The notes: generated by a model from the letters alone, not told the origin. DNA of 64,000 bases from Cyanidioschyzon merolae (GCA_000091205.1 AP006500.2), one strand, 5' to 3'; shown: positions 1,911-38,604, counted from the first letter of the stretch. Numbers and translations: made by a program.

Positions 1911-3501
1911 GGTGTCAGCATAAAATGGAGCAGGTCCACGAATACTGGCTAGCTCTCTAAAAAATGGGCCTCTTCTCCTGGCCGTCAGCGCCAGCCACTG
2001 TGGGATTTTTCCGTGACTGCTTCTTGTTTTATGTTTCTTGTATCTGAAATGAAAAACCGCGGTCTGTCCTTTTACTCTAGATCGGTTGTCACTAGTCGAT
2101 GGATATTGAGGAACACGTCCAAGCGCCGATGTGGCCGATTCAAGCTGTTATCGACGAATATCATAGACACTCGATCGTTGTGAGCTACGCTTCACTCGCC
2201 ATTTTCATGTTATTTATACAGAGCCCCAGTGCGTCCTTCGCGGCGGTGGCGCTTAACTCTTTTCAGATGTTCCTATACGCGCACCAAACATCCGCGGGCT
2301 TCTCCTCCTTCTTCTTCGAGCACCGCCACGTGACACGGGAACGCTTGCTTCGTCCCTAACCACACGAACTTGACGGGTAGCGTGGGGTTCCTTCGATGTC
2401 TCACTCCGTTTCCGCGCCTCAGTGCTGTACCCTAGGATGACGGGCGTCGTCGTCGGCAATCTCCTCGGCGAGTGTGCTGTTCGCAGGACACGAAAGCGTA
2501 GGCTGCCCCATTCGGCTGCGGATTTGTGGAACGCGATATTGACCATGACGAAACAGTGTCTGGAAGGAAACCCGGGCCTGACGAAGCACTCGAGAGATCC
2601 AGTTCCATCTACGCTCCGTTCGTGCAGCGGATTTGTGGAACGCGATACTGACCATGACGAAACAGTGTCTGGAAGGAAACCCGGGCCTGACGAAGCACTC
2701 GAGAGATCCAGTTCCATCTACGCTCCGTTCGTGCAGCGGATTTGTGGAACGCGATATTGACCATGACGAAACAGTGCCTGGAAGGAAACCCAGGCCTGAC
2801 GAAGCACTCGAGAGATCCAGTTCCATCTACGCTCCGTTCGTGCAGCGCGGTGAAGCAGCCTCCGATAGAAGCGATCGCTGCGATAACGCAAGTCCGAGTC
2901 CAAGACACTTCTCCATGCAAACCGAAGACACGCGGGCCTCTACGAGCATACCCCGTGCAGCGTCGCACGCTGTTGTTGGCTCGCGCTCCACCGATAGCGT
3001 CAAAACGGGTAGGAATTGTTGTTCGGTCGATTTCAGCTAATGGAGGCGACAAGGTCAGTGAGCTTACGTTATGAGCTTGTACATACGACGTTCAGGGACA
3101 GCATCGACTTTTTCGTTTCCACGTCAATCCACCAGCGCCAACGCCTGCACCAACGAGTTGCTTTGAACGAGAACGATCGAAAACTTGAGCAGTGTCTGTG
3201 CTGCGAGCCTGCTATACGTCGGGCAAGGACAGGTGCGGCGGCTTGTACGCATGCATCGAATAACGATATCCGTTATTTGAGGAAGCCTTGTCTGAGGGCG
3301 TCGCGAATCGTCTCGACCCCAGTGCCGTCACGAATTCCAGCAACGACGAATTGAACGGGAGACACTGCAACAGAGACCGACCGAGACTCCTACAACTGCG
3401 TATCGGTTCGTATGCTCTTATTGCTGAACTTCAAATGTTGAGGCCGTGCTTCTAAAAAATCTTCGGAAAACTATCGAATGGTTAGAATGGAGCGAGCGGC
3501 T
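1911..3501. repeat. left arm of large inverted repeat (1591 bp)
   Basis: The reverse complement of 4442-5814 matches base for base, with about 1 mismatch per 200 bp in the stretches I compared. The outer end is ggtgtcagcataaaatggagc. The inner end is ggagcgagcggct. Confidence 0.9.
2518..2846. repeat. 109-bp tandem repeat, 3 copies, inside the left IR arm
   Basis: gatttgtggaacgcgata recurs at 2521, 2630 and 2739, giving a 109-bp period. Units differ by 1-3 nt. This explains the three near-identical overlapping ORFs in the track. Confidence 0.9.
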
Positions 3502-3529
3502 CAATGCTCTCTATTACGCCGAAACGACT

Positions 3530-4201
3530 CTAAAAGACGCACGTATTAGCTGCTGCTGTACCATCGGCCGAGGCAAAGCGCGTCCGAAGTTGTTCCCATA
3601 CTGCCGCTCTTTCCGATGAGACATCACCAACCGGACTGAGAAACATACTCAGTACCACCTCCTCGCCTGCCTTCTCGTGCCCGAGCAAGCGAATGATGTA
3701 TGTCGGTGTCGAGGGATCACCCCGACTGACGCCCTGTTCAAAACGCGCCGCACGAACGCCGCTGAGAAGAATGTGTAGATCCATGTTGATCGATAAGTCG
3801 ACGACGTTGGCGTAGAGGCCTCGGCGTGGCACCTCAGCGTAGAAGAGTTTCTCGAGGGTTGCGGTCGACTCAAGCACAACCGCCGCGTTCGTCGCGATAA
3901 AACGCAATTCGCCTAACTCCTTGCATGCTTCCAAAAACTCCACAAGACGAGGAAACTTTCCTGCAGCTTGGTCAACCGTCAACCGTCCGGGAGCTTGCGT
4001 TGCCATGCGCACAACGCTTCCCGTGCGCGCACGCCTTCGAACAGGGCGTGCGGCAGCCAGCGACGCGCTGTTCCAGGGCAGCAAACGCGTCCCATGAACG
4101 AGATCACGGTACACTGCCGCACAATGTAGTGCAGTATGTGTGCACCCACTAGATCTTGTGCGTTCTTCAAGCCTCAGCCTATTCAAGCCAGTGACAAACA
4201 T
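3530..4201 (-). CDS. small protein with ChuX/HutX-like (haem-utilisation/haem-binding fold) C-terminal domain and a transit-peptide-like N-terminus
   Basis: ATG at 4199-4201. The 223-aa ORF is the only ORF in the unique spacer of the IR. The pattern ELGELRFIATNAAVVLESTATLE...GLYANVV...DLHILLSGV...TPTYIIRLLG...VVLSMFLSP resembles my recollection of ChuX/HutX. The function call is weak. Confidence 0.45.
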   Translation of the reverse strand: MFVTGLNRLRLEERTRSSGCTHTALHCAAVYRDLVHGTRLLPWNSASLAAARPVRRRARTGSVVRMATQAPGRLTVDQAAGKFPRLVEFLEACKELGELRFIATNAAVVLESTATLEKLFYAEVPRRGLYANVVDLSINMDLHILLSGVRAARFEQGVSRGDPSTPTYIIRLLGHEKAGEEVVLSMFLSPVGDVSSERAAVWEQLRTRFASADGTAAANTCVF

Positions 4202-8740: not shown

Positions 8741-9350
8741 CGCCGAGGCGGTACAGCCGCGAACTCTCCCCTGGAGCACCACACAGCCGCGTTAGAGGAC
8801 GAGTATTGGCCGTTGCAGTGTACGGCCTGGGCAACAGTGACCTACAGTGCAGAAAGAATCTTGTCCGAAGACGCAGCGAGAAAATCTAGAAACGTACTGG
8901 TCTGAGCTTGCTGAGAAACAAACGCAACTCGAACGAGATGCGTCCAGTAGCACTCGCGCTACCAGTTTTCGGGCAACGGAACGCTGCACCTCCGGAGCCG
9001 CTTCCAGGTTCTACCAGCAACACCAACACCTTGTAAATTTAGACCTGTGCTCGTCCGCAGCGTCAAGGCACGAATCCCCGACTGCCAGGCTTGGGTCCCC
9101 GGTGTTACGGCACGGAGGCGAGGTCGTCCACCGGTGTCTCCTGGGAAATCCTGTCTCACGCTAGCCCATACGCCCTTGTCAGTGTAAAAACGGGAACAAG
9201 TCGACGAATACCGGCGCAGACACTCATGGATGTGTCGCTTATCGATGTCATCAACACGTGTGTGCGCAAGCTTTTTCTGTGAATGCCTCCTTTTCCTCCC
9301 ATACATCTCCGGCTTTCAACACGGTAGTATGCTTTCTTTCCCATGTTTAC

Positions 9351-10475
9351 GGTTGTCAGCAGTCGAGGAATGTTGATGGCATCTTTAAACTACCGATTTC
9401 TCCGTTTCCGGTGAAGGTCTGCGTATTTCATGTACAGGCCAAAATTGCGATCTATATTTCGCTTACCACATTCATCTTCGTTGTACACAGCCTCGGTGGG
9501 CTTTTCTGGCGATGACTATTTGCTATACACAGGCACGCTGATCTATCCATCCAGCTGAGGCGCTCCTTGGAACGCTGCCCCCATAGCGTATGAAGCCAAG
9601 CTTCATCGCCCGGTACACACTCTTGATGGGTTCAGAGAACTATTCTGGACGCCCTATTCGTTTTCCATGCCAGACGCGGCACCTCACCACCAGAGGCTTC
9701 CTCATGGGATTATCCTGTCGGCGAGTGCGCTGCCAGCTGCACATGCCAGAACAGGCTGTTCCGTTCGATCGAGCACTTGTGGAACGAGATTTTCTTCTTG
9801 ACAAATCAAGTACTGGAAGAAAAATTCCAGCAGGGCATCGTTTTGATCGATATCACTCCGTCTACGCCCTCTGGGTGCAAAGCGGTGACGCACGCGCCAC
9901 TGTTCATCGATCGCTGCGATGCCTCAAGACCGAGTCCAGGACCCGTGTTCATGCAAAAAAGAGAAACGAGCATCTCTCGGAGCGTACCCAGCGCCAGGTG
10001 ACATGCTCCTGTCGATTGCTGTTTCGTCGAGAGCTAAAAAGAGAAGTGGATTCCCCTCTCAACGGAATCGATTATTTGACGTGACAAGTTCAGAGAGCTC
10101 TTGGTATGAGCTCGTGAACCAGCCGTCATGGTTGCTTTGGGACAGAAAAATTTCAAGATTTGAAGAATACGTGATCTAGGCATTCAACTGGTTCATAAAG
10201 ACGAAGCGTGCAGTCTTCCATGTATGCATTGGATGGATGATATCGGTTATTGTCACGAACCCGTGTTCCAGGGCGTCGTGAATCCTCTTGATCCCGGTGA
10301 CGTAACGAATTCCAGTGGGAAACCGCCAGAGAAGCCATTCCTGGAAACACAACCAGCAATCCTTGATCCCCTAGTGATGCACTGCGAATATCGCTGCTGA
10401 TCATCTAAAAACATACTTCGGAAGACTAGTTCGAAATGCAAGAACAAAGCGAGCAGTTCAGAGCTCCATTTTATG
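9351..10475 (+). repeat. third, diverged copy of the IR-arm sequence family (core homology 9700-10475)
   Basis: Collinear blocks are shared with 2440-3501. Examples are tcggcgagtg(t/c)gctg, ttgtggaacg, gatcgctgcgat..ccgagtcca and agggcgtcg(c/t)gaatc.tct.ga.ccc.gtg..cgt.acgaattccag at 10270-10320 vs 3294-3343. The end block is tctaaaaa.at..ttcggaa.act...gagcgagc.g. Identity is roughly 70-75% by eye. The 5' limit is uncertain. Confidence 0.55.
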
Positions 10476-23760: not shown

Positions 23761-25038
23761 TCAGTCTTCGATTCGTGCTTTCCGATCCATCCATTCCTCG
23801 AGCTTCTCTCTCGGACTTTGACGATTTTCTAGGACGTCGATGACGCCTAACAGAATCGGAAACTTCAACGCTCGTCTCATGGGGTTCAAGTGCGGAAACT
23901 GCCTTTCAATGAGACTCGCAACTGCCTTTGCCGTCGGCACGCCTTCAGCGACCTGACTCGAAGTCTCTAAAATATGAGCAAGGGTTTCACCCTGACCCAG
24001 GCGGTAGCCAACCGTTCTGTTCCGACTGCTCGTGCCGAAGCAGGTCATAAACGTATCGCCTACGCCACTGAGGCCGGCCACAGTCACCGGACGAGCACCA
24101 AAACTCCGCGCAAGGCGCCGCATCTCCGAGCAGCCGCGAGTCACCAGCGCAGCTGTCGCGTTCATACCGAGACCAAGTCCCTCGCAGATGCCGGCAGCAA
24201 GGGCGATAACGTTCTTCACAGCGCCACAAATTTCAACGCCAACAACGTCGCTCGAGCGAAATACTTTCAGTGCTGGTGAGCTAATAGCGGCTGCAATACT
24301 CGCACATGCAGCAGCGTCATGCGAGGCCAGGACGACGGCTGCCGGAAGATCGGCCAACATCTCATGGGCGAAAGAGGGTCCCGAGAGAAACATGCATGGC
24401 ACCGGACGCTCTTTACCGAATACGTCGTCGAAAATCTCGTACATAAAGTTGCCTGTGCTAACCTCAATACCCTTGCTTGTGGACAGAATCGGTGTTCCGG
24501 GCGCCAAATTCGGGCGAACGCTCTCCACGAGAAAAGCTCTGCTCGCTTGGACCGGCACAGCATGAACACATAACCAGCAGCCTTTCAGAGCATCTTCGGG
24601 GTCCGTGGTCGCTCGAACAAGCTTTGGAAACCGGAAGCCTGGAACTAACGCAGTGTAGCGAGGGTTTGTGCGCTCCTTGTTGATCGTCTCTGCGACCTCC
24701 GCTCGACGAACAAGCAGCACAACCTGGTGACCATTGTTAGCCAAGGCAAACGCCATAGCGCTCCCAAAAGAGCCGCCGCCACAGATCGCTACGTGTCGAG
24801 CTTCCTCTTGGCTCTGCCCAGACAATCGTGCGTGCGTAGGTGGAACCTTCCGCCTCACAGACCGCCGCCCATAACTGGGGTCAGCAGAAGGGCGTCGCCA
24901 CAGCGTCACAGAAAAGGCGGTTTCCGTTCGAGCGGATCCTGCGCCCTCGAAGCCCCTAGCCAATGAGATGGCACAAGTGAACGCACTCGAAACAGACCTC
25001 GTGCTCTGTAGCCGCGGCACAGTTTGCTCAGGCTGCAT
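23761..25038 (-). CDS. NAD(P)H-dependent glycerol-3-phosphate dehydrogenase (GpsA type) with about 90-aa presequence
   Basis: VAICGGGSFGSAMAFALA, LSTSKGIE, GAVKNVIALAAGICEGLGLGMNA and GLSGVGDTFMTCF..SRNR.VG. ATG at 25036-25038. TGA stop at 23761-23763. Confidence 0.9.
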   Translation of the reverse strand: MQPEQTVPRLQSTRSVSSAFTCAISLARGFEGAGSARTETAFSVTLWRRPSADPSYGRRSVRRKVPPTHARLSGQSQEEARHVAICGGGSFGSAMAFALANNGHQVVLLVRRAEVAETINKERTNPRYTALVPGFRFPKLVRATTDPEDALKGCWLCVHAVPVQASRAFLVESVRPNLAPGTPILSTSKGIEVSTGNFMYEIFDDVFGKERPVPCMFLSGPSFAHEMLADLPAAVVLASHDAAACASIAAAISSPALKVFRSSDVVGVEICGAVKNVIALAAGICEGLGLGMNATAALVTRGCSEMRRLARSFGARPVTVAGLSGVGDTFMTCFGTSSRNRTVGYRLGQGETLAHILETSSQVAEGVPTAKAVASLIERQFPHLNPMRRALKFPILLGVIDVLENRQSPREKLEEWMDRKARIED

Positions 25039-26019
25039 GAGCTACTATCCTGCATCGGAACGAAGGACGCTCACCCGCGGTAGTGTCGCGCTTCTGATCC
25101 GCGCAGGCGCGTAAGCCGGCAGGAGTCGTTGCTGCATCGAGTTTTTTTCGATGACAGAGCGTTTCCATTGACCATGAATCCCCAATAGCGGGATGGGTAC
25201 TACGATTCATGTAATTCTCCATCATGACGCAACCTATCTCCAAGTTCCATTACCCATATTTCCTCTCAGGTATACTGGTCTTTTCCTTTGTTCTATCGTA
25301 TGCCAAGTGCCTGCAGTGAGCACCCACCGCAGCGCCTAAACCGCTTGTGCGGATGCTACACGGAGACAGAGTAGCTTTGTCATACCACTGAGGGCGTCGG
25401 CTCGAGGAATGCTACACCTGACACGGGATCAGGGCTACTTATCATTCTGGGAGTCTGGAAGCTGCGCAGGCAGGCGTACTGCCTGCGGCAGCGCAGAGCG
25501 ATATTCTTCGAGGACACCACGACCAGCGCGACGCCCAGACGCAGCATACCGCTCTGAGTCCCAGAATAAACTGCATTGCGGACGAGTTGCTCAGATCTCT
25601 CTGCATGACCAGGCTCCGAGAGGTCTATGAAGCACGAGCCTGGGAGAATCGTCCGACTCGCGGGACATTCCGCCCAGAAGGTAAACTTTCGTCAATATGG
25701 AAATCTTTGCTCCCCATGAATTTTTATCATTGACAGGGAAGGCAATTGTTATCTCGCTGCCAGTCAGTAGTGAGTCTCTGCTCTTCGTTCTATAGAGTAC
25801 AGTCGATAGGCGCACCCAGGAGATCTGCCAGGCACGAGGTACGACGTGGATATCGCCATTGAAGAGAAACGCGATCCTGATCATTAGCATGTTGTATACC
25901 GTACAAGGTGTATTTGCGTTGAAGTCGTAGCAACGTTTAGTCTTCAGTTCAGTTGTGTTCCAACCCCAAAGCAAGTATATACGAGCGATTTTTCGTGGTT
26001 TATAGCAGAAGCGTTCAAA

Positions 26020-28263
26020 GTGTGTTCTTTTTCGAAAATAAAAAAGGAAAGTTCTGGACGAAGAAGTGGAGGATCCTGGAGGCACGGTGTCGCCAGGTGG
26101 CGAAAAGAACGAAAAATAGTGCCGAGCAAAGATGAACAGGAGAAGAAGAAGAAGAAGCGAGAGCCAGACCTCAACGGCTGCAAGAAAGGCGACAGCATGA
26201 CGAGATGATAGTGAACGCCTGCCTTCTTGGATGTATCAAGGATCCGTACGAGCAGAAGATGCGAGAGACCACCAGAAGCCGTGTCGATTCCTACTCCAGG
26301 AGCGTGCGTAACACTTCTTTTTGGACTGAAGCATACGGTGAAGGAGATATACGATGACCTTACCGACACGAAAACAGTCGAGGTTCCGGAAGCGTTTTTT
26401 TTAACAAGACCCTCAGCCGCCACTTGATGCTTGGCACAGGGGGACGTCGAGGGAAAATGAGCGCATGTGCGTCCTCCATGAAAAATACCCCTACTAGGGT
26501 CTCAAAGGTACTCGTTACAGGGGTGACTCGCGTATTTTCGAATACAGGGCAAAAAAGTATCTCACGAACCTGAACAACCATATGATCATGAAGCTCGAAC
26601 GTTTCATGACACGCTCCATCGTTGCGCGCTACCCGGGCCTCTCTCGCAAAGGGATACGGGCCATCATCAATGGCGTCAGGAACGATAGTAAGAATGAACA
26701 GGAGATCGAATTCCTCGACGAGAAGACATCACACAGGAGAACGAATGAAGCTTCTGCAATCCGTACGGCAATTCAAGAGCACCGTCCGGTCTCGGAGCTG
26801 GTCAATCCAGCAGGAAATGTATCAGGTATGGAAAAAGAAAAGCAAAGATGTTATCCCCTAATCCTGCGCTATTTCGTGTGTTTGGACCGCGAACTCGATC
26901 CCAAGGCCAATATGGAGCTGGGTGTGGAACAAAATGTAGAGTCAGAGAAACGGAAGGGTATCCTAACGGGTAAGCGCTTTAGCGTTGTTGCGTTATGCAT
27001 CACCAAGTTCCATTTTGTAACAATCGACTCCAGAGTCCTCAACGGCATCATGAAGGAGGTCTGTCTGGAGTTCGATGTAAGGAAGATAGAGTTCACCAGT
27101 GAAAACCGGGAGACGTACTGGAAGAATATCTTCAATTTCAAACGTCTCAATACGTGCAAGCAAAAGGTATTCACTGGCATCATCGAAACCGATGGAGTAG
27201 CCATGTGTGTACACTCTCGGCGCTTGAAGGCAGATCGTCCAGTTCCGTCCTCGACTGCGCCCGTGGCGAAGCATGAAGAAAACAAGGAGGCTGGCCTTAC
27301 AACGCAGGAGGTACAGGAGAACGATTTTGTTGTTGGCACGGACCCTGGGAACACGAATATCGTAACCATCGCAGTACCCAAGCGTGCGGAAGATGATATC
27401 GACGGCAACTTACGTCAGAAGGACATCCGTCTTTGAAAGCTCACGACAGCTACATCTTACCGAGAATCAGGAAAACTGAATGCAAGGAAAAGAAATGAGA
27501 CGTGGAATGCAGGAGTGAAAGAGCACAAGGCAGCGATCAGCCAGGTGACGAGCCGAGGAGCGGACTTTGAAGCTTTTCGAGAGTTCATGAAAGTCCGCGC
27601 TGCTCTTGACGAGCCGCTGTCGAAAGAATCTACAAAGCCCCGGTGGGCTCGTCTGCTTAGAATCTTGTACTTTGGGAAGCAGCACGCATTTGCCAACTTC
27701 TTCAATGAGTTGAGCGCTCTCAAAGAGGACAAAATTCAGAGACTCGTGGTGGTATACGGAGCAGGGCATTGGATGACACGGAAAGGTAGCACACCAGCTC
27801 CATCGACACGAGCGTATAAGGAGTGCACACTGTGCTTCGTCATGATGTCGATAGATGGGTTCCGAACGTCGTATACATCCACCATGAGCTAGGGTGTGTA
27901 CTTGAGAGTGTCGAGATGGAAAAGTGCCAGCAGAGCACTGAGGATGTAGCAAACTACGGAGCGCTGACAGAGCACCTAACGGCATGGAGGGTGCGAGTTC
28001 GAGGTCTACTTCCGTTGGTGAGTACAACCAATGCCAAGAAACATATGAAATTCGTGAACCGAGACTTCAATGCCGCCAACAGTATAAGCAGATAGGCGGT
28101 GCTGGAGAAGAGGCCCCCAGAGTTGACCAGAGCCAACTTTCTGGGGCAACCTCTGCAGATGGCGCTGTACGAGAAGAAGCTGAAGCCAGTAGTAAATGGC
28201 CGGTCCAAAAACCCTGGGAGAATTCTGCACGCTGGCGTATATACATCAACGCTATCGGCTTGA
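26020..28263 (+). pseudogene. TnpB-like / Fanzor-type RuvC nuclease, copy 1, near full length but disabled
   Basis: Ordered motifs are [16 protein letters not shown] (Asp 27341-27343), QRLVVVYGAGHW..KG.TPAP and SIDGFRTSYT (Gly 27857-27859 where copies 2 and 3 have Glu). They are followed by KFVNRDFNAANSI (Asp 28063-28065). Lesions are TAG 26495-26497, a frame change at the T-run near 26395-26405, TGA 27437-27439, a +2 nt insertion at 27878-27879 and TAG 28093-28095. The 5' limit is uncertain. Confidence 0.75.
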
Positions 28264-28804
28264 TGTGTGTGCGTTCGTTTGCTCGTTTTGCTGGCGGGAT
28301 TGATGGCGTCGATCCCGAGTCCAGATGGAGAGCTGGCGGGAATGCTGCTGCGCTCTTTTCGCTGCAGTGCGTTGCGAGGCATTCTGTAACGAGAGGCAGG
28401 TTTCCAGGGGCAGCACAGAGCAGCAACACAGGATACGTTCAAAGGCGTGCTTGGCGTGCTTCCGAGCGGCACCTTCGGGGGTTTATTTCGGAGCTTCGCC
28501 TTCGAGCGCTCTCCATAAGCGAAATACCAACGGTTTCAGTGATGGGCGGGCAACGATGCGTACAGGTGAGAAACGCTCCAGATGCCACGACCACCGCGCG
28601 ATCGTTGCGCCAGGAAACGACATAATTTTGAGAAGAAGCATATACAGGCCCAATCCTAATGATAAGCGATTTCATGTAGTCGACGCATCGAATATATGTA
28701 GCCGCTAGGCACCGACGCATCCTCGTTGACATGCGGAGCGCAGCGTTCTCCTGTCCAATGCCCAGTCATGCCCCGTACAGGTATTCATTTCTTGACCGCA
28801 TCAT

Positions 28805-29563
28805 TCATTCCTCAGCGGACGCCGATGACGCCGGTCGAGAGCGAGGCCGAAAGCGCAGCGGTGCAGCGCTACGCTTTCGGCGACTCGAGCCCGAGGTGGC
28901 TTTCACGATGTTCGCGTCGGCGGCCGTGCAGATAAGACGCAAACGATCAGCGTAAACGTAGGCCTCGGTAGTCGCGTCTCCAGCGGAGCGTGCATGACTG
29001 GTCACAGCGGGAACAGCGCGTCCGTCCAGGCAGTCCGGCCGAGGCGGTAAATGGGAAGCAAGTCGCGGGCCCTCGAGTTTCAGGCTCCCGCTCGCGGGAA
29101 CTGCCGGTTCAACGCGTATACTGGCATCCGTGGCGCCACCTAGGTCACTGGTCCGTGGCAGTCGCTCCACAGCAGCGTAGGTTTCCGGTTTGCGCTCGAG
29201 TCGAAGCAGTGCATGTCGGACGAGAAAAGTCCACACGTTATCTCGCAAGTTGTAGTGTGCGAGGCGTCCCCTGAGCACGGAACGCTGGCGGACTTTCCGT
29301 CGTAGATAGCGAGCAACTGCTTGGTCAAACTGGGTCCACACCAAAGCAGCCTCTGACTCCTGCAAGTGTCCCGCGCTCAATAACTCGTCGAGGGTGTCCT
29401 CAAGAGTCAGGCCAATTGTTGAGGCCCGGTAGTGAGCGTAAAACACCCCCGGCTGGTTAGCGGCGGTGTTTGCATCTTGTTTCCCTCCCCGAATGCTTTC
29501 CGTTGTAGCTTGGCCCGCATCTGGCTCTGCTTTTGCAGTACGCTGCGGTGTTGCGTCGCTCAT
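28805..29563 (-). CDS. GTF2A2: transcription factor TFIIA small (gamma) subunit with an internal insertion
   Basis: YRASTIGLTLEDTLDELLSAGHL...ALVWTQFDQAVARYL...RGRLAHYNLRDNVWTFLV matches the TFIIA-gamma N-terminal helical and beta-barrel signature. ATG at 29561-29563. TGA stop at 28805-28807. Confidence 0.7.
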   Translation of the reverse strand: MSDATPQRTAKAEPDAGQATTESIRGGKQDANTAANQPGVFYAHYRASTIGLTLEDTLDELLSAGHLQESEAALVWTQFDQAVARYLRRKVRQRSVLRGRLAHYNLRDNVWTFLVRHALLRLERKPETYAAVERLPRTSDLGGATDASIRVEPAVPASGSLKLEGPRLASHLPPRPDCLDGRAVPAVTSHARSAGDATTEAYVYADRLRLICTAADANIVKATSGSSRRKRSAAPLRFRPRSRPASSASAEE

Positions 29564-30203
29564 CGCACGACCAGGATATTCCCCTACGGAGCACGCCTCG
29601 GCTGGCGGCTTAGGTACTGATCTTCACCGTACTGTACGTCCTACCTCAAGAGTTATCGCTCCTATTTTGTTTCACCTTGATCCAAGTAGGTTAGCAGTTT
29701 AAAGACTGGTTGCTGCCCAGCCGGTCCAGCAAGGCGCTCACGAGACGCAAACACGGAACGTTTCGCGCTCGCGCGGCGTTTGCAACGCCGGATACACGCG
29801 CTAGCCAGGGCGATCCATGACTACTCCCACCTCTATCACTTCTCCTACATCAATAACTACTTTCTGGGGTCCTAGAACGGAACGGAATGGTGGTCCCTTC
29901 CCTGGATGCCGATGATCATCACGCAATGGGCACTTCCACCCCAGTCTCATCGATCCAACACTATTCAAGTAAGTTATTGCGATCGTCCCGTGCCTTCGGC
30001 ACCGTCGTGAAGCTGCCGACGATCGCAGCACCACGGGACTCGGTTTATGCCGGCGATCAGGCTCCGCTGCAGTTCATGGACCGGCTGCGCTGCTGCATCA
30101 TGTGCATCGCTCAGTCTAGTTAAAAGCGTAAGCAAGCTCGACCAAAAATCGTTTGATCTCTGTGTATCCCCGATGAGGCTTTTGATGCTGGATGCGGGGT
30201 GAC

Positions 30204-30845
30204 CTATCGTCTCCCGGTCCACGAGGAAAGACTCGGCATCCTGGCACGGCATATTGGCAACGACACCGGCTCCCGTGGCGTATTGCGAGCATCGGGTGCA
30301 TTCCAGAGAACCCGGCCATCGTGCTGCCTGCACCAAGCTGCTAACACTGAAGGGCCAGCATATGATCCTCCTCTTTCCTGTACGCGATGCACAGGGCACT
30401 CTGGGTGCCCAGGCCTATATGGGGCGCTTGCCATGACGCTGGGCGTGTCGCCGCCAATGCCGCACGAAGACAAGATGCATGCACGACGTGTTCTATGCTG
30501 TGCGACTGAAGCGTCTGCCCAGGTTTCGACGAATGCGGAATCGGTGATGGCAATCAGGGAAGAGCACACAACTCCGCTTCGAATCTTGCACCGTACTATC
30601 AGCACAAGGTCAGTAGTTCCGATGGGTATGTGGGTGCGTTTCAGAGACTCTCCGAGTACCAACTCTATTACGTCGATTTGCGCTACCACTACGGGCGTCA
30701 GTTCGATGTGCGTGAGTATCATTCGATGGGTGCGCTGGCGTCGACATAATCGCGCCCGTATCCGGCGCAGCTCGTGCACGACTCCATAGCGCTTTCTTAG
30801 CGCTTTTGTGGCGATACGTTCGGGCAGCAAGGATTCACTCATCAA
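30204..30845 (-). CDS. hypothetical protein (frame uncertain; may continue in ORF 29974-30399 after a frame change)
   Basis: 213-aa ORF, but a 196-aa ORF on the opposite strand overlaps it completely. No family recognised. Confidence 0.25.
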   Translation of the reverse strand: MMSESLLPERIATKALRKRYGVVHELRRIRARLCRRQRTHRMILTHIELTPVVVAQIDVIELVLGESLKRTHIPIGTTDLVLIVRCKIRSGVVCSSLIAITDSAFVETWADASVAQHRTRRACILSSCGIGGDTPSVMASAPYRPGHPECPVHRVQERGGSYAGPSVLAAWCRQHDGRVLWNAPDARNTPREPVSLPICRARMPSLSSWTGRR

Positions 30846-31099
30846 AGCGGTGCGTTTGCCACAGACTTGGGTGAGCGTTCGGAGCTGCGAGCTCGTGCTG
30901 TCAGCGTGCTATTCCCCGATGCATCCAGTAGTATAGACGCCGTCCTCTCGAAGAAAAGCCAAAAAGCGATCAGCAACCATCCAGCAGACTTTCTCTTCAT
31001 GGAGTCTGTCTCTTTCCCGCTCATGGACGCCCCAAGTACGCAATCGACTCAGCAAATTTGCACCATCAAAAGTCGCCTCTGAAGCGCTTTTCGTGTCCT

Positions 31100-31138
31100 C
31101 ACGCACGCACGCACGCACGCACGCATGCATGCATGCGT
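31100..31138. repeat. (CACG)n(CATG)n microsatellite
   Basis: cacgcacgcacgcacgcacgcacgcatgcatgcatgc read directly. Confidence 0.9.
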
Positions 31139-31687
31139 GTGTTCCAGTGCCGCAACCGCATCGCAACGCCAGCAATGAACGCGCAGGTACAGCAATGTCC
31201 AGAATCGATCCGTGTCGCCGCTCCGTGGCCCGACTGAAGATGCCGGCGGCGAGTGCCGGCATCATCAATGCCCGACGAAGCAGCAGCAGCAGCGGCGGCG
31301 GTGGCGGCATCGATAGCGCGCCCGACAGCTGCGCACCGCTGCCGCCGAGCGCAGAATCGAAGGATTGCCGCCGCCGCCGCCGCCGCCGCCGTCAAATCCA
31401 GCGCCTACGAACCTGTAGCTACTGTTCTTATAGTTGTTTTCGGGGTATCCCTCACATACAGAACAAACTCGCAGGGTTTCGCAGGGCCCTATAGATACTG
31501 TGGTGCAGATCAACAAACCTTGCGCTTACGAACCTTGAGAACCGACGGAAATTACTACGAACGAACGCAGAGACGTACAGCGTACCACGACTTGATCAGC
31601 GACGGTACCAACCTGTATACACTCCAGCGCTCTCTTTTGAGCGTGCAAGTCGTGCACACGCAAACTTCATCGGGCACCGATCCCTAA

Positions 31688-33655
<1,968 letters not shown>

Positions 33656-34370
33656 ACACGTAAAGTGAATACCCTCAAGATGCCTGCTATCGTCCGCTGC
33701 GGCATTCTCCAAAGCGCGTATCCGCTTGTCGTGGACGCGAATACTGCGTGTCGGCGCTGCAGTTCCGGGACGGCCGCAGGGCCCGCAAGCGCGACACGCC
33801 TCGCTGGCGCGTTCCCGCTGGTAGCTGTCAACGCGAGCTTGTCGTGGGCTTCTCTGCCCAGAGCCGCTGTTATCGGAACCCGGGTTACGGTACTCAAGTG
33901 CGGACAGTGCAGGCAGGGGTCCGCCTAGGTCTGCAACGAGTGCCGCACTGGTCGGCGCCCGCCAGTTCAGATTCGAAGCACATGCCGAAGCGCGTCAGTG
34001 TCACCAGGTCGCTATGAAACGCCAGTGACACTCTCTCCAGATCCAGATACCCAAGTGAGTGACTTATGCTCCTTCAGCGAGTGTCAAGTTCCCGGTGCAT
34101 AAGCTTGCCGAACTGGCGCAGCATGCATCCTGCCAGATGGAAGCAGTTCGATGGTTCACGCTCGCTAGCCTGACGGATCATCTGTAGTCTTTTGTACATA
34201 CCAGGTTTGCAGCCCAGCGAGCCTGGATTCCGATGAAGCACTCGACCGCGATAGCGTACCAGGTCGTCTATTGCAGAGCACGACTTGCATCGATTCTGGA
34301 ATACCGCCACCAAACGCCGTTCGAAAGTCGAACGACGCCAACGGTGTACAGTAGTGGCGAGTGACCCGCC

Positions 34371-35400
34371 CTAGACAAGACGTCTCCAAGTGACGTGCAG
34401 ACGCCATCCGATCTTTCTCGACCGGCCACCTACGACTACTGCTCCCAACTTCTTCTCATATAGTTCGACTTTTGGAGGTTGTTCCACAAAGTTCTCCCGT
34501 GTCAACTCTGGAGGTCTCGTCTCTATCACCGCACATCTCCTTATATTGGTAGCGGCATTAAGGTCTCGGTTCACAAACTCCATACGTTTCTTGCAATCAT
34601 TGGTTGTACGTACTCATGCGAGTAGCCCTCGAAGTCTCGCTCTCCTTTCCATTTGCTCCTCCGTCAGCGGTCCATACTTTTTTATATCTTCAGGGCTCCG
34701 CTGACACTTTTCCATCTCCACTGTCTGAAGTGTACACCCCTGTTCATGGTGTGTATACGAGGTTCGGAACTCATCTACAGGTATCGTAACGAAACGCCGT
34801 GCGCCCTCCTTGTACGTTCTTGTCGTTGGAGCTGGCGTAGTCCCTTTTTGGGTCTTCCATCGCCTTGCTCCGTACGCTACGACGAGCCTCTGATTTCCAT
34901 CCTCCTTCAGGTCACTCAACTGATTGAAAAAATTCGCGAACGCCCGCTGCTCCCCACAATACAAATTCATTCGCAAACGAGCCCGCCGGGGCTTGGTATA
35001 CTCCTCCCACAGCGCATCCCAATGGGCAACGCGAACTTTCATGAATTTCCGAAAAGCTGCAAAGTCCGCGCCTCGTCTAGTCACCTCGCTCAAAGCTTCC
35101 AGGTGCTCTTTCATTCCTGAGTTCCAAGTCTCGATTTTCTTCCTCGCATTCATTATACCGGATTCTCGATAGTATCTTGCTCTCGAGAGCCTCAAAAGAC
35201 GCATGTCTTTCTGACGTAAGTTACCATCAGTCCCATCTTCCGCACACTTTGGTACAGAGATGGTTATGATGCTCGTATTCCCAGGGTCCGCGCCAACGAC
35301 AAAGTCGTTATCCTGCACCTCCTGCATCGCAGGATCCGCATCATTCTCATCTACATCCTTCGCCAGGGGCGAAGCCGAGGACGGACCAGGAAGCGGGCCC
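34371..35400 (-). pseudogene. TnpB-like / Fanzor-type RuvC nuclease, copy 2; the N-terminal half is missing and there is one in-frame TGA
   Basis: DFVVGADPGNTSIITI (Asp 35286-35288), QRLVVAYGARRW, PVDEFRTSYTHHEQGC (Glu 34770-34772) and EFVNRDLNAATNIRR (Asp 34563-34565). ORFs 34614-35327 and 34371-34583 are in the same frame, separated only by TGA 34614-34616. Homology to copy 1 runs upstream to about 35400 (GPLPGPSSASPLAK vs [12 protein letters not shown]) and then stops. Confidence 0.75.
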
Positions 35401-35401
35401 G

Positions 35402-36323
35402 ACGGCGCTGGAGGTGCAGAAGAACGCGTTTGTCGTTGGCGTGGATCCCGGGAACACCCACATCGTTACCATCGCAGCACCCAAGCGTGAGGAAGATGGC
35501 TCTGTCGGCAACTTACGTCAGAAAGACATAAGTCTGTTGAAGCTCTCATGAGCGAGATATTACCAAGAATCCGGTATAATGAATGCGACGGAGAAAAGTG
35601 AGACATCGAACTCAAGAGTGAAGGGAATTTGGAAGCGATCAGCCGGGTGACGAGCCGCGGAGCCGACATTGAAGCGTTTCGAGAGGTTATGAGCATTCAC
35701 GCAGCTGATGACGAGAGCTTTTGGAAAGAATGCACAAAGTTCAGGTGGGCTCGTCTGCGTATGAACCTGTACTGTAGGAAGCAGCGAGCATACGCCAGCT
35801 TTTTCAATCAATTGAGCGCCCTCAAGGAGGACATGAGCCAAAGGCTCGGAGTAGCATACGGGGCAGGGCGCTGGATGACCCAAAAAGGGTGTACACCAGC
35901 TCCAACGACAAGAACGTACAAGGAGTGCGCACATCGTTATGTCGAAATACCTTTAGATGAGTTTCGAACATCTCATACACACCACGAGCTGTGTTGTACA
36001 CTTCAGAGGGTCGCGATGGAGAAAAGCCAGCGGCTCGCTGACGGAAATGCAAATAGCAAGGAGGGCGAAACTTCGAGGACTACTCGCTTTGGTTCGTAAA
36101 ACTAATGATAGGAAGAAACGAATAGAGTTCCTGGACTGAGACTTTAACGCCGCCATCAGTATAAGGAAATGTGCAGTACTGGAAAGAAGACCCCCGGAGT
36201 TGGCGAGAGCCAACTTTGCGGGGCAACCTCTTAAAATGGAGTGATACGAGAAGAAGTTGAAACCAGTAGTAGGTGGCCAGTTGCTGAACGCCAGCACAGT
36301 CGTCTGCACATCATTGGGTAGAC
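35402..36323 (+). pseudogene. TnpB-like / Fanzor-type RuvC nuclease, copy 3; the N-terminal half is missing and it is heavily disabled
   Basis: AFVVGVDPGNTHIVTI (Asp 35444-35446), QRLGVAYGAGRW, PLDEFRTSHTHHELCC (Glu 35959-35961) and EFLD*DFNAAISIRK. In the last motif the Arg codon of NRD is TGA (36137-36139). Further stops lie at 35549-35551 and 36242-36244. There are frame changes near 35620 and near 36030. Confidence 0.7.
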
Positions 36324-36661
36324 AATCGGTCTACGGCGGACGGTGTGAGAAACGCCACCATTGTACACTGGCTTTCCAGCGTTTCTCTTTTGCAAGGCGT
36401 TTGGTGGTGTTTCCAGAGACGAATTGTTTACCAAAAACGTCTTCTATCGATCTTCGAAACCAACGTGCTGCTTCCTCTGTGCGGCACGGGGCGTACGCTA
36501 TGCGCTTTTCTGCTGATTGACAGCGGAAGCGACGAGTCCGGTTACTGCCTTGAAGACTTTGACGCTTTGGAGAGACCATCATATCGATGGTTTCAGTTTT
36601 CTGACCTCCTCCTAACCACCACGCTCGGATCTCTGTTGCAACGGCACGCGCAGCAGCTCTC

Positions 36662-37610
36662 ATGGCAGCCAAAGCTGAACCCGGGCATCGAGAGAGTGGA
36701 AAGCTGCATCAAAGGTGGCGGAAAGCCAATGAAGCTGGTTATCTGAGCAAGCTTGCATCACCTGCAGAGCTGCGAGCACTCGTCCAAGCGAAACTGACAC
36801 CCGAGGAGCAAGTGCGTTTTGGGATGCAGTGTGCAGGGCTGGCAGCCAAGGCACTTGAGGTACTCGACAAGTCGCTTACATCTTTAGAGCAAGACATAGA
36901 GAACGAGTCTTGTGACTGGGAAATAGAATCGGACGATGCCATGGACCGTGTTGCGAGACGATTCCTTGCCGATCTCGAACAGCTAAAGCAGACTGGCAGC
37001 ACGCGTCGACTCACCCAACTCAGTATTTGGCGTCGCATCAGTCGCTAGGTCGTACTGGCGGAAAGGCGAGCATGAACTGCAGGCTGAAGGCAGTCCTCTT
37101 GTGAGGCAAGTCGCGAAGATCGCGGACCAGGCATCCAAGACTCCGGGATACCGCCAGGTCGTTGCCTGGGAGCATCTGGAAGAGCTCGCAGATGCGGCAA
37201 CTGCAGATGGTGTATTCGGTTCGCAGTCGCGGTCGATGTCACGTATCTTACGTCGCCCAGAAAGTCGGTTTCGACTCTTGCTCACGAAACTAGAGCTTGG
37301 TGAGGAGCTCTGCACACGCGACGAGCGGCGTTTGATGCTAGCATTGGATACCTCTGATGCGAGACTTGAACCCGAACGCATGCGCTCGAGGAAGAGGGCA
37401 CCTGGTGGAGCGCAGGATGGCGCCTCTGCAAAGCGCGACCACGGGAGGTCTGCATCCGTTTCGTCGTCGTCGTCGTCGTCGTCGTTAGAGCCAGAGCACG
37501 AGGATCACGTGCACCCAGCGGCCAAGAACGCGTCTTCCGCGAGAAAGAAAAGACGACATCATCGGCGACGATCATCCAACAAAAACGAAACCCTGGAGAA
37601 TCCTCAGTAA
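36662..37610 (+). CDS. hypothetical coiled-coil / Ser- and Arg-rich protein; reading frame split into two ORFs (36662-37048 and 37101-37610)
   Basis: ATG at 36662. The second frame is already open from 36987, so the two frames overlap at 36987-37048 and a single 1-nt indel would join them. No family recognised. Confidence 0.35.
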
Positions 37611-38604
37611 GCTAGCATTTGAGCGAGATTGCTGCCGAATCATCGCCGTGCCCTGGCCCAGTGGATATCGCATGATGCATCGTTTACAGCGTTTCAGTCA
37701 TGATCCTGGGTGGTGATTATCCCCGCCGGAATACCTCAGGACTAGATCGCGGATCGTTGGAAGCTACGCTCGCGTCCATCGCGTGTACCATGCGCTGCAA
37801 AAGTGGTGCTTGTCTGCAGCTCCTCAAAGAGCACATGATCGCTTGCTGTGCTGCGAGCACCACGCCGCCGGCCTCTGTCGGCAAACGCGCTCAAAGGCGT
37901 ACTCGCGACAAGCATGAATTCAGCAGGAATATTGGCGCTGGTTGAGGCACTGCGACTGACTATCGAGAGACCAATCTCAGCAACCGCAGCATGCGTCGAT
38001 CACTGGGGCGCAGCTTAAACTCCAGCAGCGATGCGGCAGTGTCAGAGCCAGACCTGCAGACTAGTGGACAGAGCGCAGCATGCCTCGTTCTGGATTTCGC
38101 AGAAGTACCCGCCAGAGACGCTTTTCAGGGTAGCCAGTGGCGGATCGCGTCTATTTCGCTACCGGGAATTCGGACGGATTCCGCGTCCAGTCGACCGGGG
38201 ACGGTTCACGCTCTCCACTCGGACGTCAACGCGTTTCACTTTGGTGATGAAGGTGCTGCATTCATCGACCGACCAGTCTGCATGACGATTCGAAGAACAT
38301 CGGGCGGAATCTTTGATGCATACCTCTGGAGCATGATTCGCAGAGGTGTACTTTTTTGCGGGTCGTCGAGGTGGAGCGTGTGGCGAGAGCCACATATTTG
38401 AGCGACCTCGCACCGGGCGTGATCCAAGTCACCATTCGGCTGATGCTCAAGCGTGCCTCGCGTACCCGACATGTCGTTGCTCACCTTCGTGATGCTGGTG
38501 TGCTTCTGTGGGTAGCGCACTTGCGCCCGTTTGCGAAGCGTAGCGGACCTTGAGGACAAATGGCACGCTCCAGCAGCCATGCGCTTGCATAGGTCATGCA
38601 TTCA

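Follow-up and report, generated by a model that had tools for sequence, protein, structure and literature searches.

Three dead CMe-1A/Fanzor1 insertions on chromosome 18 of Cyanidioschyzon merolae, very probably from lineages that diverged as working genes and decayed separately

Results

Three unannotated element copies in two intergenic gaps

The DNA analysed here (hereafter, the window) is a 64,000-nucleotide stretch of Cyanidioschyzon merolae 10D (AP006500.2), part of chromosome 18, in which three unannotated repeat copies, named c1, c2, and c3, occupy two intergenic gaps of a very gene-dense chromosome. All three are copies of a Fanzor1 element, and the results described below make it very probable that they are dead insertions of the CMe-1A/Fanzor1 family, the lineages of which diverged as working genes and then decayed separately. 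The coordinates of the copies, their lesions, and their ends are collected in Table 1; loci of related strains are designated by L numbers and homologous proteins by P numbers.

The first copy, c1, consists of a 5′ non-coding region of ~1 kb and a broken Fanzor1 open reading frame (ORF), remnants of which extend over 26172–28240. Its homology to the elements of L001/L002 runs from ~25230 to 28231, and its 5′ terminus, set by the alignment start of eight independent copies, lies ~105 bp upstream of the GPDH start codon. In a tblastn comparison with the 752-residue homologue P0002, residues 20–752 were matched in four pieces and three frames, and the last ~75–90 nt of the family 3′ end are not recognisable in c1. 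The other two copies are head-to-head neighbours, each retaining only the 3′ third of an element, with the 5′ ~2.1 kb gone. DNA identity of c2 to L001/L002 is 85% over 34316–35362, with repeat-unit homology continuing to 35391; c3 is 73% identical to L001/L002 from 35406/35414 and 72% identical to c1 from 35358. This near-identical 5′ truncation was not mentioned in the preliminary description of the region, the range of which (26020–36323) cuts off the 5′ kilobase of c1 and the last 80 nt of c3. Fanzor searches of the window gave no further copies beyond these three and no second, distant Fanzor family.

Eight long ORFs in the flanks correspond exactly to C. merolae 10D proteins in the range BAM82635–BAM82649, namely AP-3 beta (BAM82635), inositol dehydrogenase (BAM82640), GPDH (BAM82641), p68 helicase (BAM82643), condensin D2 (BAM82644), CMR487C, a conserved hypothetical protein (BAM82647), and CMR491C. 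For annotation, the value of the locus is routine: three unannotated transposon pseudogenes between GPDH, TFIIA-gamma, p68 helicase, and condensin D2. A simple-sequence stretch of ACGCACGCATGC-type repeats lies at 31090–31400, upstream of the helicase gene, and its GC-rich run reads as poly-Ala or poly-Arg in several frames.

Table 1 Features of the three copies in the window and of distant Fanzor fragments in related strains (positions are those of the window unless a locus is named)
Feature	Position	Strand	Description
c1	25142..28231	+	~3.1 kb, nearly full-length CMe-1A/Fanzor1 element
c1 5′ terminus	25142–25166		TTTTTTTCGATGACAGAGCGTTTCC
c1 stops	26355–57, 26495–97, 27434–36; 28093–95	+	TGA (first three); TAG (last)
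c1 frame lesions	~27878; 26330–26450	+	+2 nt insertion; further frame changes
c1 RuvC-II Glu→Gly	27857–59	+	GGG, 'IDGFRTS'
c2	35391..34310	−	5′-truncated: RuvC half, C-terminal tail, 3′ end
c2 RuvC motifs	35288–35274; 34775–34758; 34571–34551	−	DPGNT; DEFRTS; NRD; all intact
c2 sole in-frame stop	34616–34614	−	TGA; family majority codon TTA
c2 subterminal 3′ hairpin	34310..34339	−	Type I, CGTCGTTCGA-CTT-TCGAACGGCG, then TTTGG
c2/c3 junction	35358..35374		17-bp inverted repeat CTTCGCC-AGG-GGCGAAG
c3	~35392..36404	+	5′-truncated, strongly decayed; start uncertain between 35375 and 35414
c3 stops	35549–51, 36137–39, 36242–44	+	TGA
c3 deletions	~35626; 36031/32	+	−1; −26
c3 decayed 3′ hairpin	36376..36404	+	Type II, family form AACGTTTTTC-TTTT-GAAAGACGTT, then TTTGG
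Distant Fanzor fragments	L025 5275–5599; L050/L061 ~8900–9450; L072/L073 ~3170–3810; L076 376–771; L082 7056–7740

The copies belong to the CMe-1A family of Fanzor1 elements

Fanzor1 proteins are eukaryotic relatives of bacterial TnpB that act as RNA-guided RuvC DNA endonucleases, and their guide, the omega-RNA, is made from the 3′ end of their own element. When the repaired c1 protein was used as a query, 104 homologues were found, all of them metagenomic and none from annotated genomes. In the PDB, a profile built from 18 homologues finds Fanzor1 chains and nothing else (Parasitella 9cf0, E = 1.2e-13; Spizellomyces 8gkh, E = 2.1e-10), and its DPG, DEFRTS, and NRD segments align to the RuvC-I, -II, and -III motifs of these two structures. 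The corresponding motifs, DPG(N/R)T, DEFRTS, and NRDxNAAxN, are invariant or nearly so in 18 distant and 10 close homologues, and read DPGNT, DEFRTS, and NRDxNAAxNI in the ORF of the family. An AlphaFold (AF2) model of P0002 (mean predicted local distance difference test, pLDDT, 75; predicted template modelling score, pTM, 0.68) gave seven top matches in a Foldseek search of the PDB, all to Fanzor1 (E = 1e-15 to 2e-13, probability 1.00; target-normalised template modelling scores 0.47–0.69), with Cas12 and Fanzor2 structures matched only at E ≥ 0.016. Pfam was uninformative: the sole match in scans of the window ORFs was Cas12f1-like_TNB (E = 0.24, with 12 bits where the cut-off is 26.3), no match above threshold was obtained for five homologues, and precomputed matches to 'DUF8286' were weak. 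An assignment to TnpB of IS200/IS605 or IS607 was not supported, the Pfam match being below threshold and no transposase-like ORF adjoining the copies in the ORF list of 24000–38500, which was not a dedicated TnpA search. By homology with the solved Fanzor1 enzymes, intact members of the family most likely encode an RNA-guided RuvC endonuclease.

A Fanzor1 element from this host has been described as CMe-1A by Bao & Jurka (2013, Mobile DNA 4:12; PMC3627910), who reported ~150 copies with ~80% identity to a consensus of ~3 kb, no terminal inverted repeats (TIRs), undetermined target site duplications, and an unknown class; some copies were intact, and the 'long lasting coding capability' was taken as implying a function of Fanzor1. 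The sequences examined here have the same host, a length of ~3.1 kb in c1, ends that are not inverted repeats, and many diverged copies. Set by this published description (size, host, and absence of TIRs), c1–c3 are pseudogenised insertions of CMe-1A.

Divergence among the copies carries the mark of purifying selection

The codons quoted in the preliminary description as examples of silent divergence proved exact, both for DPGNT (GAC CCT GGG AAC ACG in c1, GAC CCT GGG AAT ACG in c2, and GAT CCC GGG AAC ACC in c3) and for NLRQKD (AAC TTA CGT CAG AA(G/A) GAC). Over ~290 aligned codons, differences at the first, second, and third codon positions number 52:54:103 between c1 and c2, 52:60:94 between c1 and c3, and 51:51:107 between c2 and c3, at a protein identity of 61–69%. 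Third positions carry about half of all differences. The more general statement that the copies differ mainly by synonymous changes holds when counted per site but not by raw count, in which non-synonymous differences (110–118 per pair) slightly outnumber synonymous ones (88–99). The ratio of non-synonymous to synonymous divergence (dN/dS, or omega) by the method of Nei and Gojobori (NG86) is 0.26 for c1–c2, 0.29 for c1–c3, and 0.22 for c2–c3, with dS of 0.71–0.86. Maximum-likelihood estimates under the GY94-F3x4 model are 0.31, 0.34, and 0.25, respectively, and omega = 1 is rejected in likelihood-ratio tests with p = 7e-12, 9e-10, and 2e-15.

The copies were then placed among those of related strains. 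Metagenome contigs from hot-spring samples with close relatives of C. merolae were scanned, and 80 loci, chosen by a C-terminal pattern, were taken out of at least 323 related stretches. The resulting 85 cores of ~930 nt (from these loci and the window) are almost uniform in length, implying few insertions or deletions, and were collapsed at 98% identity into 55 lineages with a median pairwise identity of 83%. In a neighbour-joining tree of these lineages with parsimony counts of changes, internal branches show an omega of ~0.22 (629 synonymous and 492 non-synonymous changes), far from the value near 1 that unconstrained sequence would give, and terminal branches 0.34 overall, with 0.36 for cores carrying lesions, 0.24 for those without, and ~0.45 for the terminal branches of c2 and c3. 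Such a contrast between internal and terminal branches marks lineages that were under selection and whose tips decay neutrally. Diversity at third positions is roughly double that at positions 1 and 2 over codons 0–260, after which only a weaker protein constraint is seen. The proposal that the lineages had parted under purifying selection as working genes is thus supported, both by the pairwise maximum-likelihood values and by the internal branches.

As for the position of each copy in the tree, c2 is 87% identical to several mainstream lineages. For the third copy, c3, identity to 52 other lineages reaches 76% at most, and its neighbour-joining sister is c1; both c1 and c3 sit on long isolated branches, with no sampled lineage more than 77% identical to either. 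Lesion-free cores are rare (6 of 85), most copies in the sampled strains being dead. A single locus (L002/L004, encoding P0002) is open over 752 amino acids, and its allele in L003 has a stop. The element and the right flank are common to L002, L003, and L004, the left flank differing between L002 and L004; the presence of the P0002 element at several loci, a sign of recent transposition, was considered and set aside, since the three look like one locus from different samples. The expectation that intact members exist elsewhere in C. merolae agrees with this open locus of the related strains and with the intact copies reported earlier (PMC3627910).

Lesions are private to each copy

Stops and frameshifts were mapped in each copy, and none is common to c1, c2, and c3, in accordance with the preliminary description; the CGA→TGA change that it had placed in the catalytic NRD motif of c3 is also real (at 36137–39), located beside an Asn→Asp replacement, at a codon that is CGA in c1 and c2. 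With respect to the active sites, c2 keeps all three RuvC motifs, c1 has lost the RuvC-II Glu to Gly, and in c3 the RuvC-III Asp has a stop as its neighbour. Most stops in the set of 55 lineages occur in one lineage each, at codons that a single substitution turns into a stop (TGG, CAG, CGA, and TTA). The core lesions of c1 are found only in its own orthologues (L083/L084/L086); the TGA of c2 is unique, three other lineages having TAA at the same codon, a different mutation; and the NRD TGA of c3 recurs in L079/L082, which are not relatives of c3, as a recurrent CGA→TGA change. Read-through of the stops as an explanation is ruled out by the frameshifts and truncations, as well as by the replacement of the catalytic Glu by Gly. 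Of the earlier claim that the copies were inactivated independently after insertion, the independence is upheld by these private lesions; death after insertion and death at insertion are indistinguishable, especially for the truncations of c2 and c3.

A separate observation concerns the tail of the ORF. Core codon 274 (aligned to c1 28123–28125) is TAG in 12 of the 55 lineages and TTG, TCG, or TGG in the rest, and in P0002, too, the open ORF terminates early (codon 282). It may be natural for some lineages to end ~35 residues short, in which case not every 'stop' in the tail would be a disabling lesion.

Orthologous insertions evolve neutrally at present

No orthologous locus was present among the 80 metagenome loci, and orthologues were obtained instead through a member of the helicase cluster (P0127). 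The loci so obtained, L083–L086, represent the same chromosome region in strains 99% identical to 10D, with the same three insertions and the same lesions. Between-strain differences by codon position are 7:7:6 in c1, 4:1:3 in c2, and 7:9:10 in c3, giving a pooled 18:17:19 and an omega of ~0.66. By a hand calculation, the non-synonymous fraction (37.5 of 54) lies within 1.4 standard deviations (SD) of neutrality and ~3.4 SD above the expectation for omega = 0.25. From these counts it follows that c1–c3 evolve neutrally now, though their lineages diverged under constraint.

Within c3, the segment 35541–35719 shows 18 differences in 180 bp between 10D and L083/L085, compared with ~1% elsewhere in the 13.6-kb orthologous region. 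Compared with the rest of the family, the base of 10D is the odd one out at 12 of these 18 sites and that of the other strain at 6, and the segment may be a tract of ectopic gene conversion. Such conversion raises an alternative in which the copies have long been dead and have been overwritten in patches from active members of the family, mimicking selected divergence. The local excess of differences between strains that otherwise differ by ~1%, the 12 sites at which one strain has the family-majority base, and the clustering of copies within a few kilobases of each other are what this alternative would predict; we nevertheless regard it as improbable, because the lesions are identical in all strains, because frequent conversion would have erased the isolation of c1 and c3 from all other lineages, and because a supply of active, selected lineages would still be required, so that divergence of working lineages would stand as the main inference.

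The head-to-head pair is not a duplicated fragment

Aligned with its own reverse complement, the segment 34295–36417 is 71.6% identical, its centre being occupied by the inverted repeat of the c2/c3 junction, and the c1 sequence homologous to this junction, CTGCGCCCGTGGCGAAG, is itself a near-palindrome. Together with the loss of the same 5′ part from both arms, these features would suit a fold-back duplication of a single truncated, dead copy, in which inactivation was shared first and the palindrome arms then drifted neutrally. We consider this very unlikely. The arms differ with an omega of 0.25, which, omega = 1 being rejected, excludes neutral divergence of a duplicated dead fragment; and their identity to each other does not exceed that to c1 (75.6% for c2 and 72.2% for c3). 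Moreover, c2 is close to many lineages, and c3, distant from all, clusters with c1. The two break points lie near each other without coinciding, since the homology of c2 to full-length elements passes the symmetry centre by ~20–50 bp (to 35391) and c3 starts at 35375–35414. We conclude that c2 and c3 are two separate copies from different lineages, not a duplicated pair.

The junction sits within a region of tandem 66–75-bp repeats, present as one to about six units among family members. Each unit encodes 22–25 amino acids of the form KHEExKEAxPxTQEVQDNDxVV, and the repeat region is predicted to be disordered (P0002 residues 376–471). L083/L085 carry one extra 75-bp unit in c2, just left of the junction (window 35300–35320 versus L083 13599–13674). 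Other head-to-head pairs occur in related strains, in L004 and in L079/L082.

A compositional origin of the third-position excess was also weighed. As a reading-frame control, dN/dS is 0.9–1.7 in four of the five other frames, and 0.35–0.47 in the antisense frame that shares third positions, as expected. The G + C content is 0.52–0.58 at third codon positions (GC3) and 0.52–0.55 at first positions (GC1), and the ratio of transitions to transversions is 1.15–1.35. Although several of the stops arose by CGA→TGA or TGG→TAG, changes seen repeatedly in the family, and the copies are slightly less GC-rich than their surroundings, a mutational artefact (decay of a GC3-rich gene, CpG deamination, or hypermutation resembling repeat-induced point mutation) can hardly account for the pattern, in view of the unremarkable GC3 close to GC1, the low transition excess, the persistence of omega at 0.25–0.34 in a model with kappa and F3x4, the near-neutral values in the other frames, and the lack of any third-position excess when the same sequences are compared between strains.

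Ends of the element, partial copies, and neighbouring fragments

At its 3′ end the family has ~65 nt of non-coding sequence that are conserved (50 copies) and include a subterminal hairpin of 10 bp. Two sequence versions of this hairpin are found at one position (L001–L082), both followed by GTTTG and a G/T-rich, microsatellite-like tail. This region may belong to the guide RNA or serve end recognition. An Rfam scan of 24500–37500 gave no match for an omega-RNA; its only two matches, sub-threshold and miRNA-like, fall in the simple-sequence stretch upstream of the helicase gene and are almost certainly due to chance. At the 5′ end (L002 4401, L004 1659, and others), a T run is followed by C(G/A)(A/T)TGACA(A/G)(A/G)(A/G)CGTTT, and two different 5′ sequence types come after this shared start. 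In some copies, a 5′ module of ~190 bp is inverted, ~450 nt upstream of the ORF; it may be related to TE-N2_CMe, which is reported to match the 5′ 635 bp of the CMe-1A consensus (PMC3627910).

Among the partial copies located away from contig ends (L042/43, L052/53, L062, L068, L004, c2, and c3), most keep the 3′ end and are without the 5′ end. The reverse pattern was seen in none of the partial copies, and the short fragment L038/L046 is without both ends, the numbers being small and the loci having been selected by a C-terminal pattern. At least 10 of ~55 loci have a second copy within 4 kb. In related strains, fragments of a second, distant Fanzor family, 30–34% identical to P0002 and resembling the homologues P0088–P0103, lie within a few kilobases of CMe-1A copies (Table 1).

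Discussion

The results described above are most readily accommodated by a history in which CMe-1A has been long-lived as many co-existing lineages, each of which would have kept its nuclease ORF under purifying selection (omega ~0.2), presumably since an element stops producing copies once its Fanzor no longer works. A copy once fixed at a locus would be useless to the host and would decay neutrally. According to this scheme, c1, c2, and c3 would derive from three such lineages, would have landed in the two intergenic gaps, and would there have gained their own stops and frameshifts. The shared deficiency of c2 and c3 could reflect one deletion across two adjacent inverted elements, or arrival of both in an already truncated form; both possibilities fit.

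Several observations weigh against parts of this history. Independent events alone do not account for the near-coincident truncation points of c2 and c3. Copies may also undergo ectopic conversion, as the c3 tract suggests, and this could blur the assignment of copies to lineages. The census of intact copies covered related strains in metagenomes, not the 10D genome. As to the guide RNA, covariation lent no support to an omega-RNA, a weak helix of 5 bp being all that RNAalifold recovered from 32 3′ ends (in the MAFFT alignment that was used, the two hairpin types do not line up), and synonymous diversity was not lowered at the 3′ end of the ORF, the test for an omega-RNA overlapping it. Finally, the CMe-1A family is not known to have a transposase, and none was seen in the ORF list of 24000–38500 or in the Fanzor searches, neither of which was a dedicated search for a transposase or TnpA.

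The 2013 proposal, qualitative at the time, that an element with only a Fanzor1 gene was kept under selection through a many-lineage history is now accompanied by numbers. An omega that has stayed at ~0.2 in an element devoid of further genes argues for a requirement of the nuclease in the production of copies, that is, in the propagation of the element itself, which bears on the natural role of Fanzor proteins. How a transposase-less Fanzor element is copied is the residual curiosity of an otherwise ordinary, published family. C. merolae has efficient homologous recombination. We tentatively raise, as a doubtful but instructive possibility, that CMe-1A, without a transposase, spreads by Fanzor-guided cleavage and homology-directed copying inward from the hairpin-bearing 3′ end. 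If true, this would explain the purifying selection on the nuclease ORF across dozens of lineages, the partial copies that keep the 3′ end and are devoid of the 5′ end, and the clustering and head-to-head junctions at microhomologies, such as that of c2 and c3. C. merolae would then offer a natural system for watching a eukaryotic RNA-guided nuclease drive its own element.

It is worth comparing CMe-1A with other systems. With the bacterial TnpB elements (IS200/IS605) it shares a RuvC nuclease encoded beside an element end that supplies the guide, a feature predicted for CMe-1A, as well as subterminal hairpins at the ends and a selfish upkeep of the nuclease gene. Unlike IS200/IS605, CMe-1A resides in a eukaryotic nucleus, and no TnpA partner is seen in the ORF list of 24000–38500. 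The solved Fanzor1 enzymes SpuFz1, PpFz, and GtFz (PDB 8gkh, 9ceu–9cez, 9cf0–9cf3, and 9cer) have the same overall fold and the same motifs (RuvC-I DPG, RuvC-II DE(F/Y)(R/K)TS, and RuvC-III NRD), at only 12–15% sequence identity. In contrast to them, the CMe-1A family carries a disordered insert of one to about six of the tandem 22–25-residue repeats just before RuvC-I, and THHE.GC...C takes the place of the usual CxxC zinc-finger cysteines that follow RuvC-II.

An analogy to HAL1/L1 was drawn by Bao & Jurka (PMC3627910). CMe-1A is without a reverse transcriptase, unlike HAL1/L1, and has in common with these long-lived multi-lineage transposons purifying selection between lineages, neutral decay with private lesions, and 5′-truncated copies. 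The closest comparison is with the published CMe-1A itself, with which the copies described here share the organism, an element of ~3 kb, a Fanzor1 protein, the absence of terminal inverted repeats, and old, diverged copies. Identity was given there as ~80% to the consensus and is here 72–76% between pairs of copies, with the median of 83% among lineages of related strains, so that there is no essential difference. The history of the family, correct but ordinary, was thus largely published in 2013, and what is added here is the explicit dN/dS, the contrast of a deep divergence under selection with a neutral one between strains, the termini of the element, and the head-to-head truncated pair.

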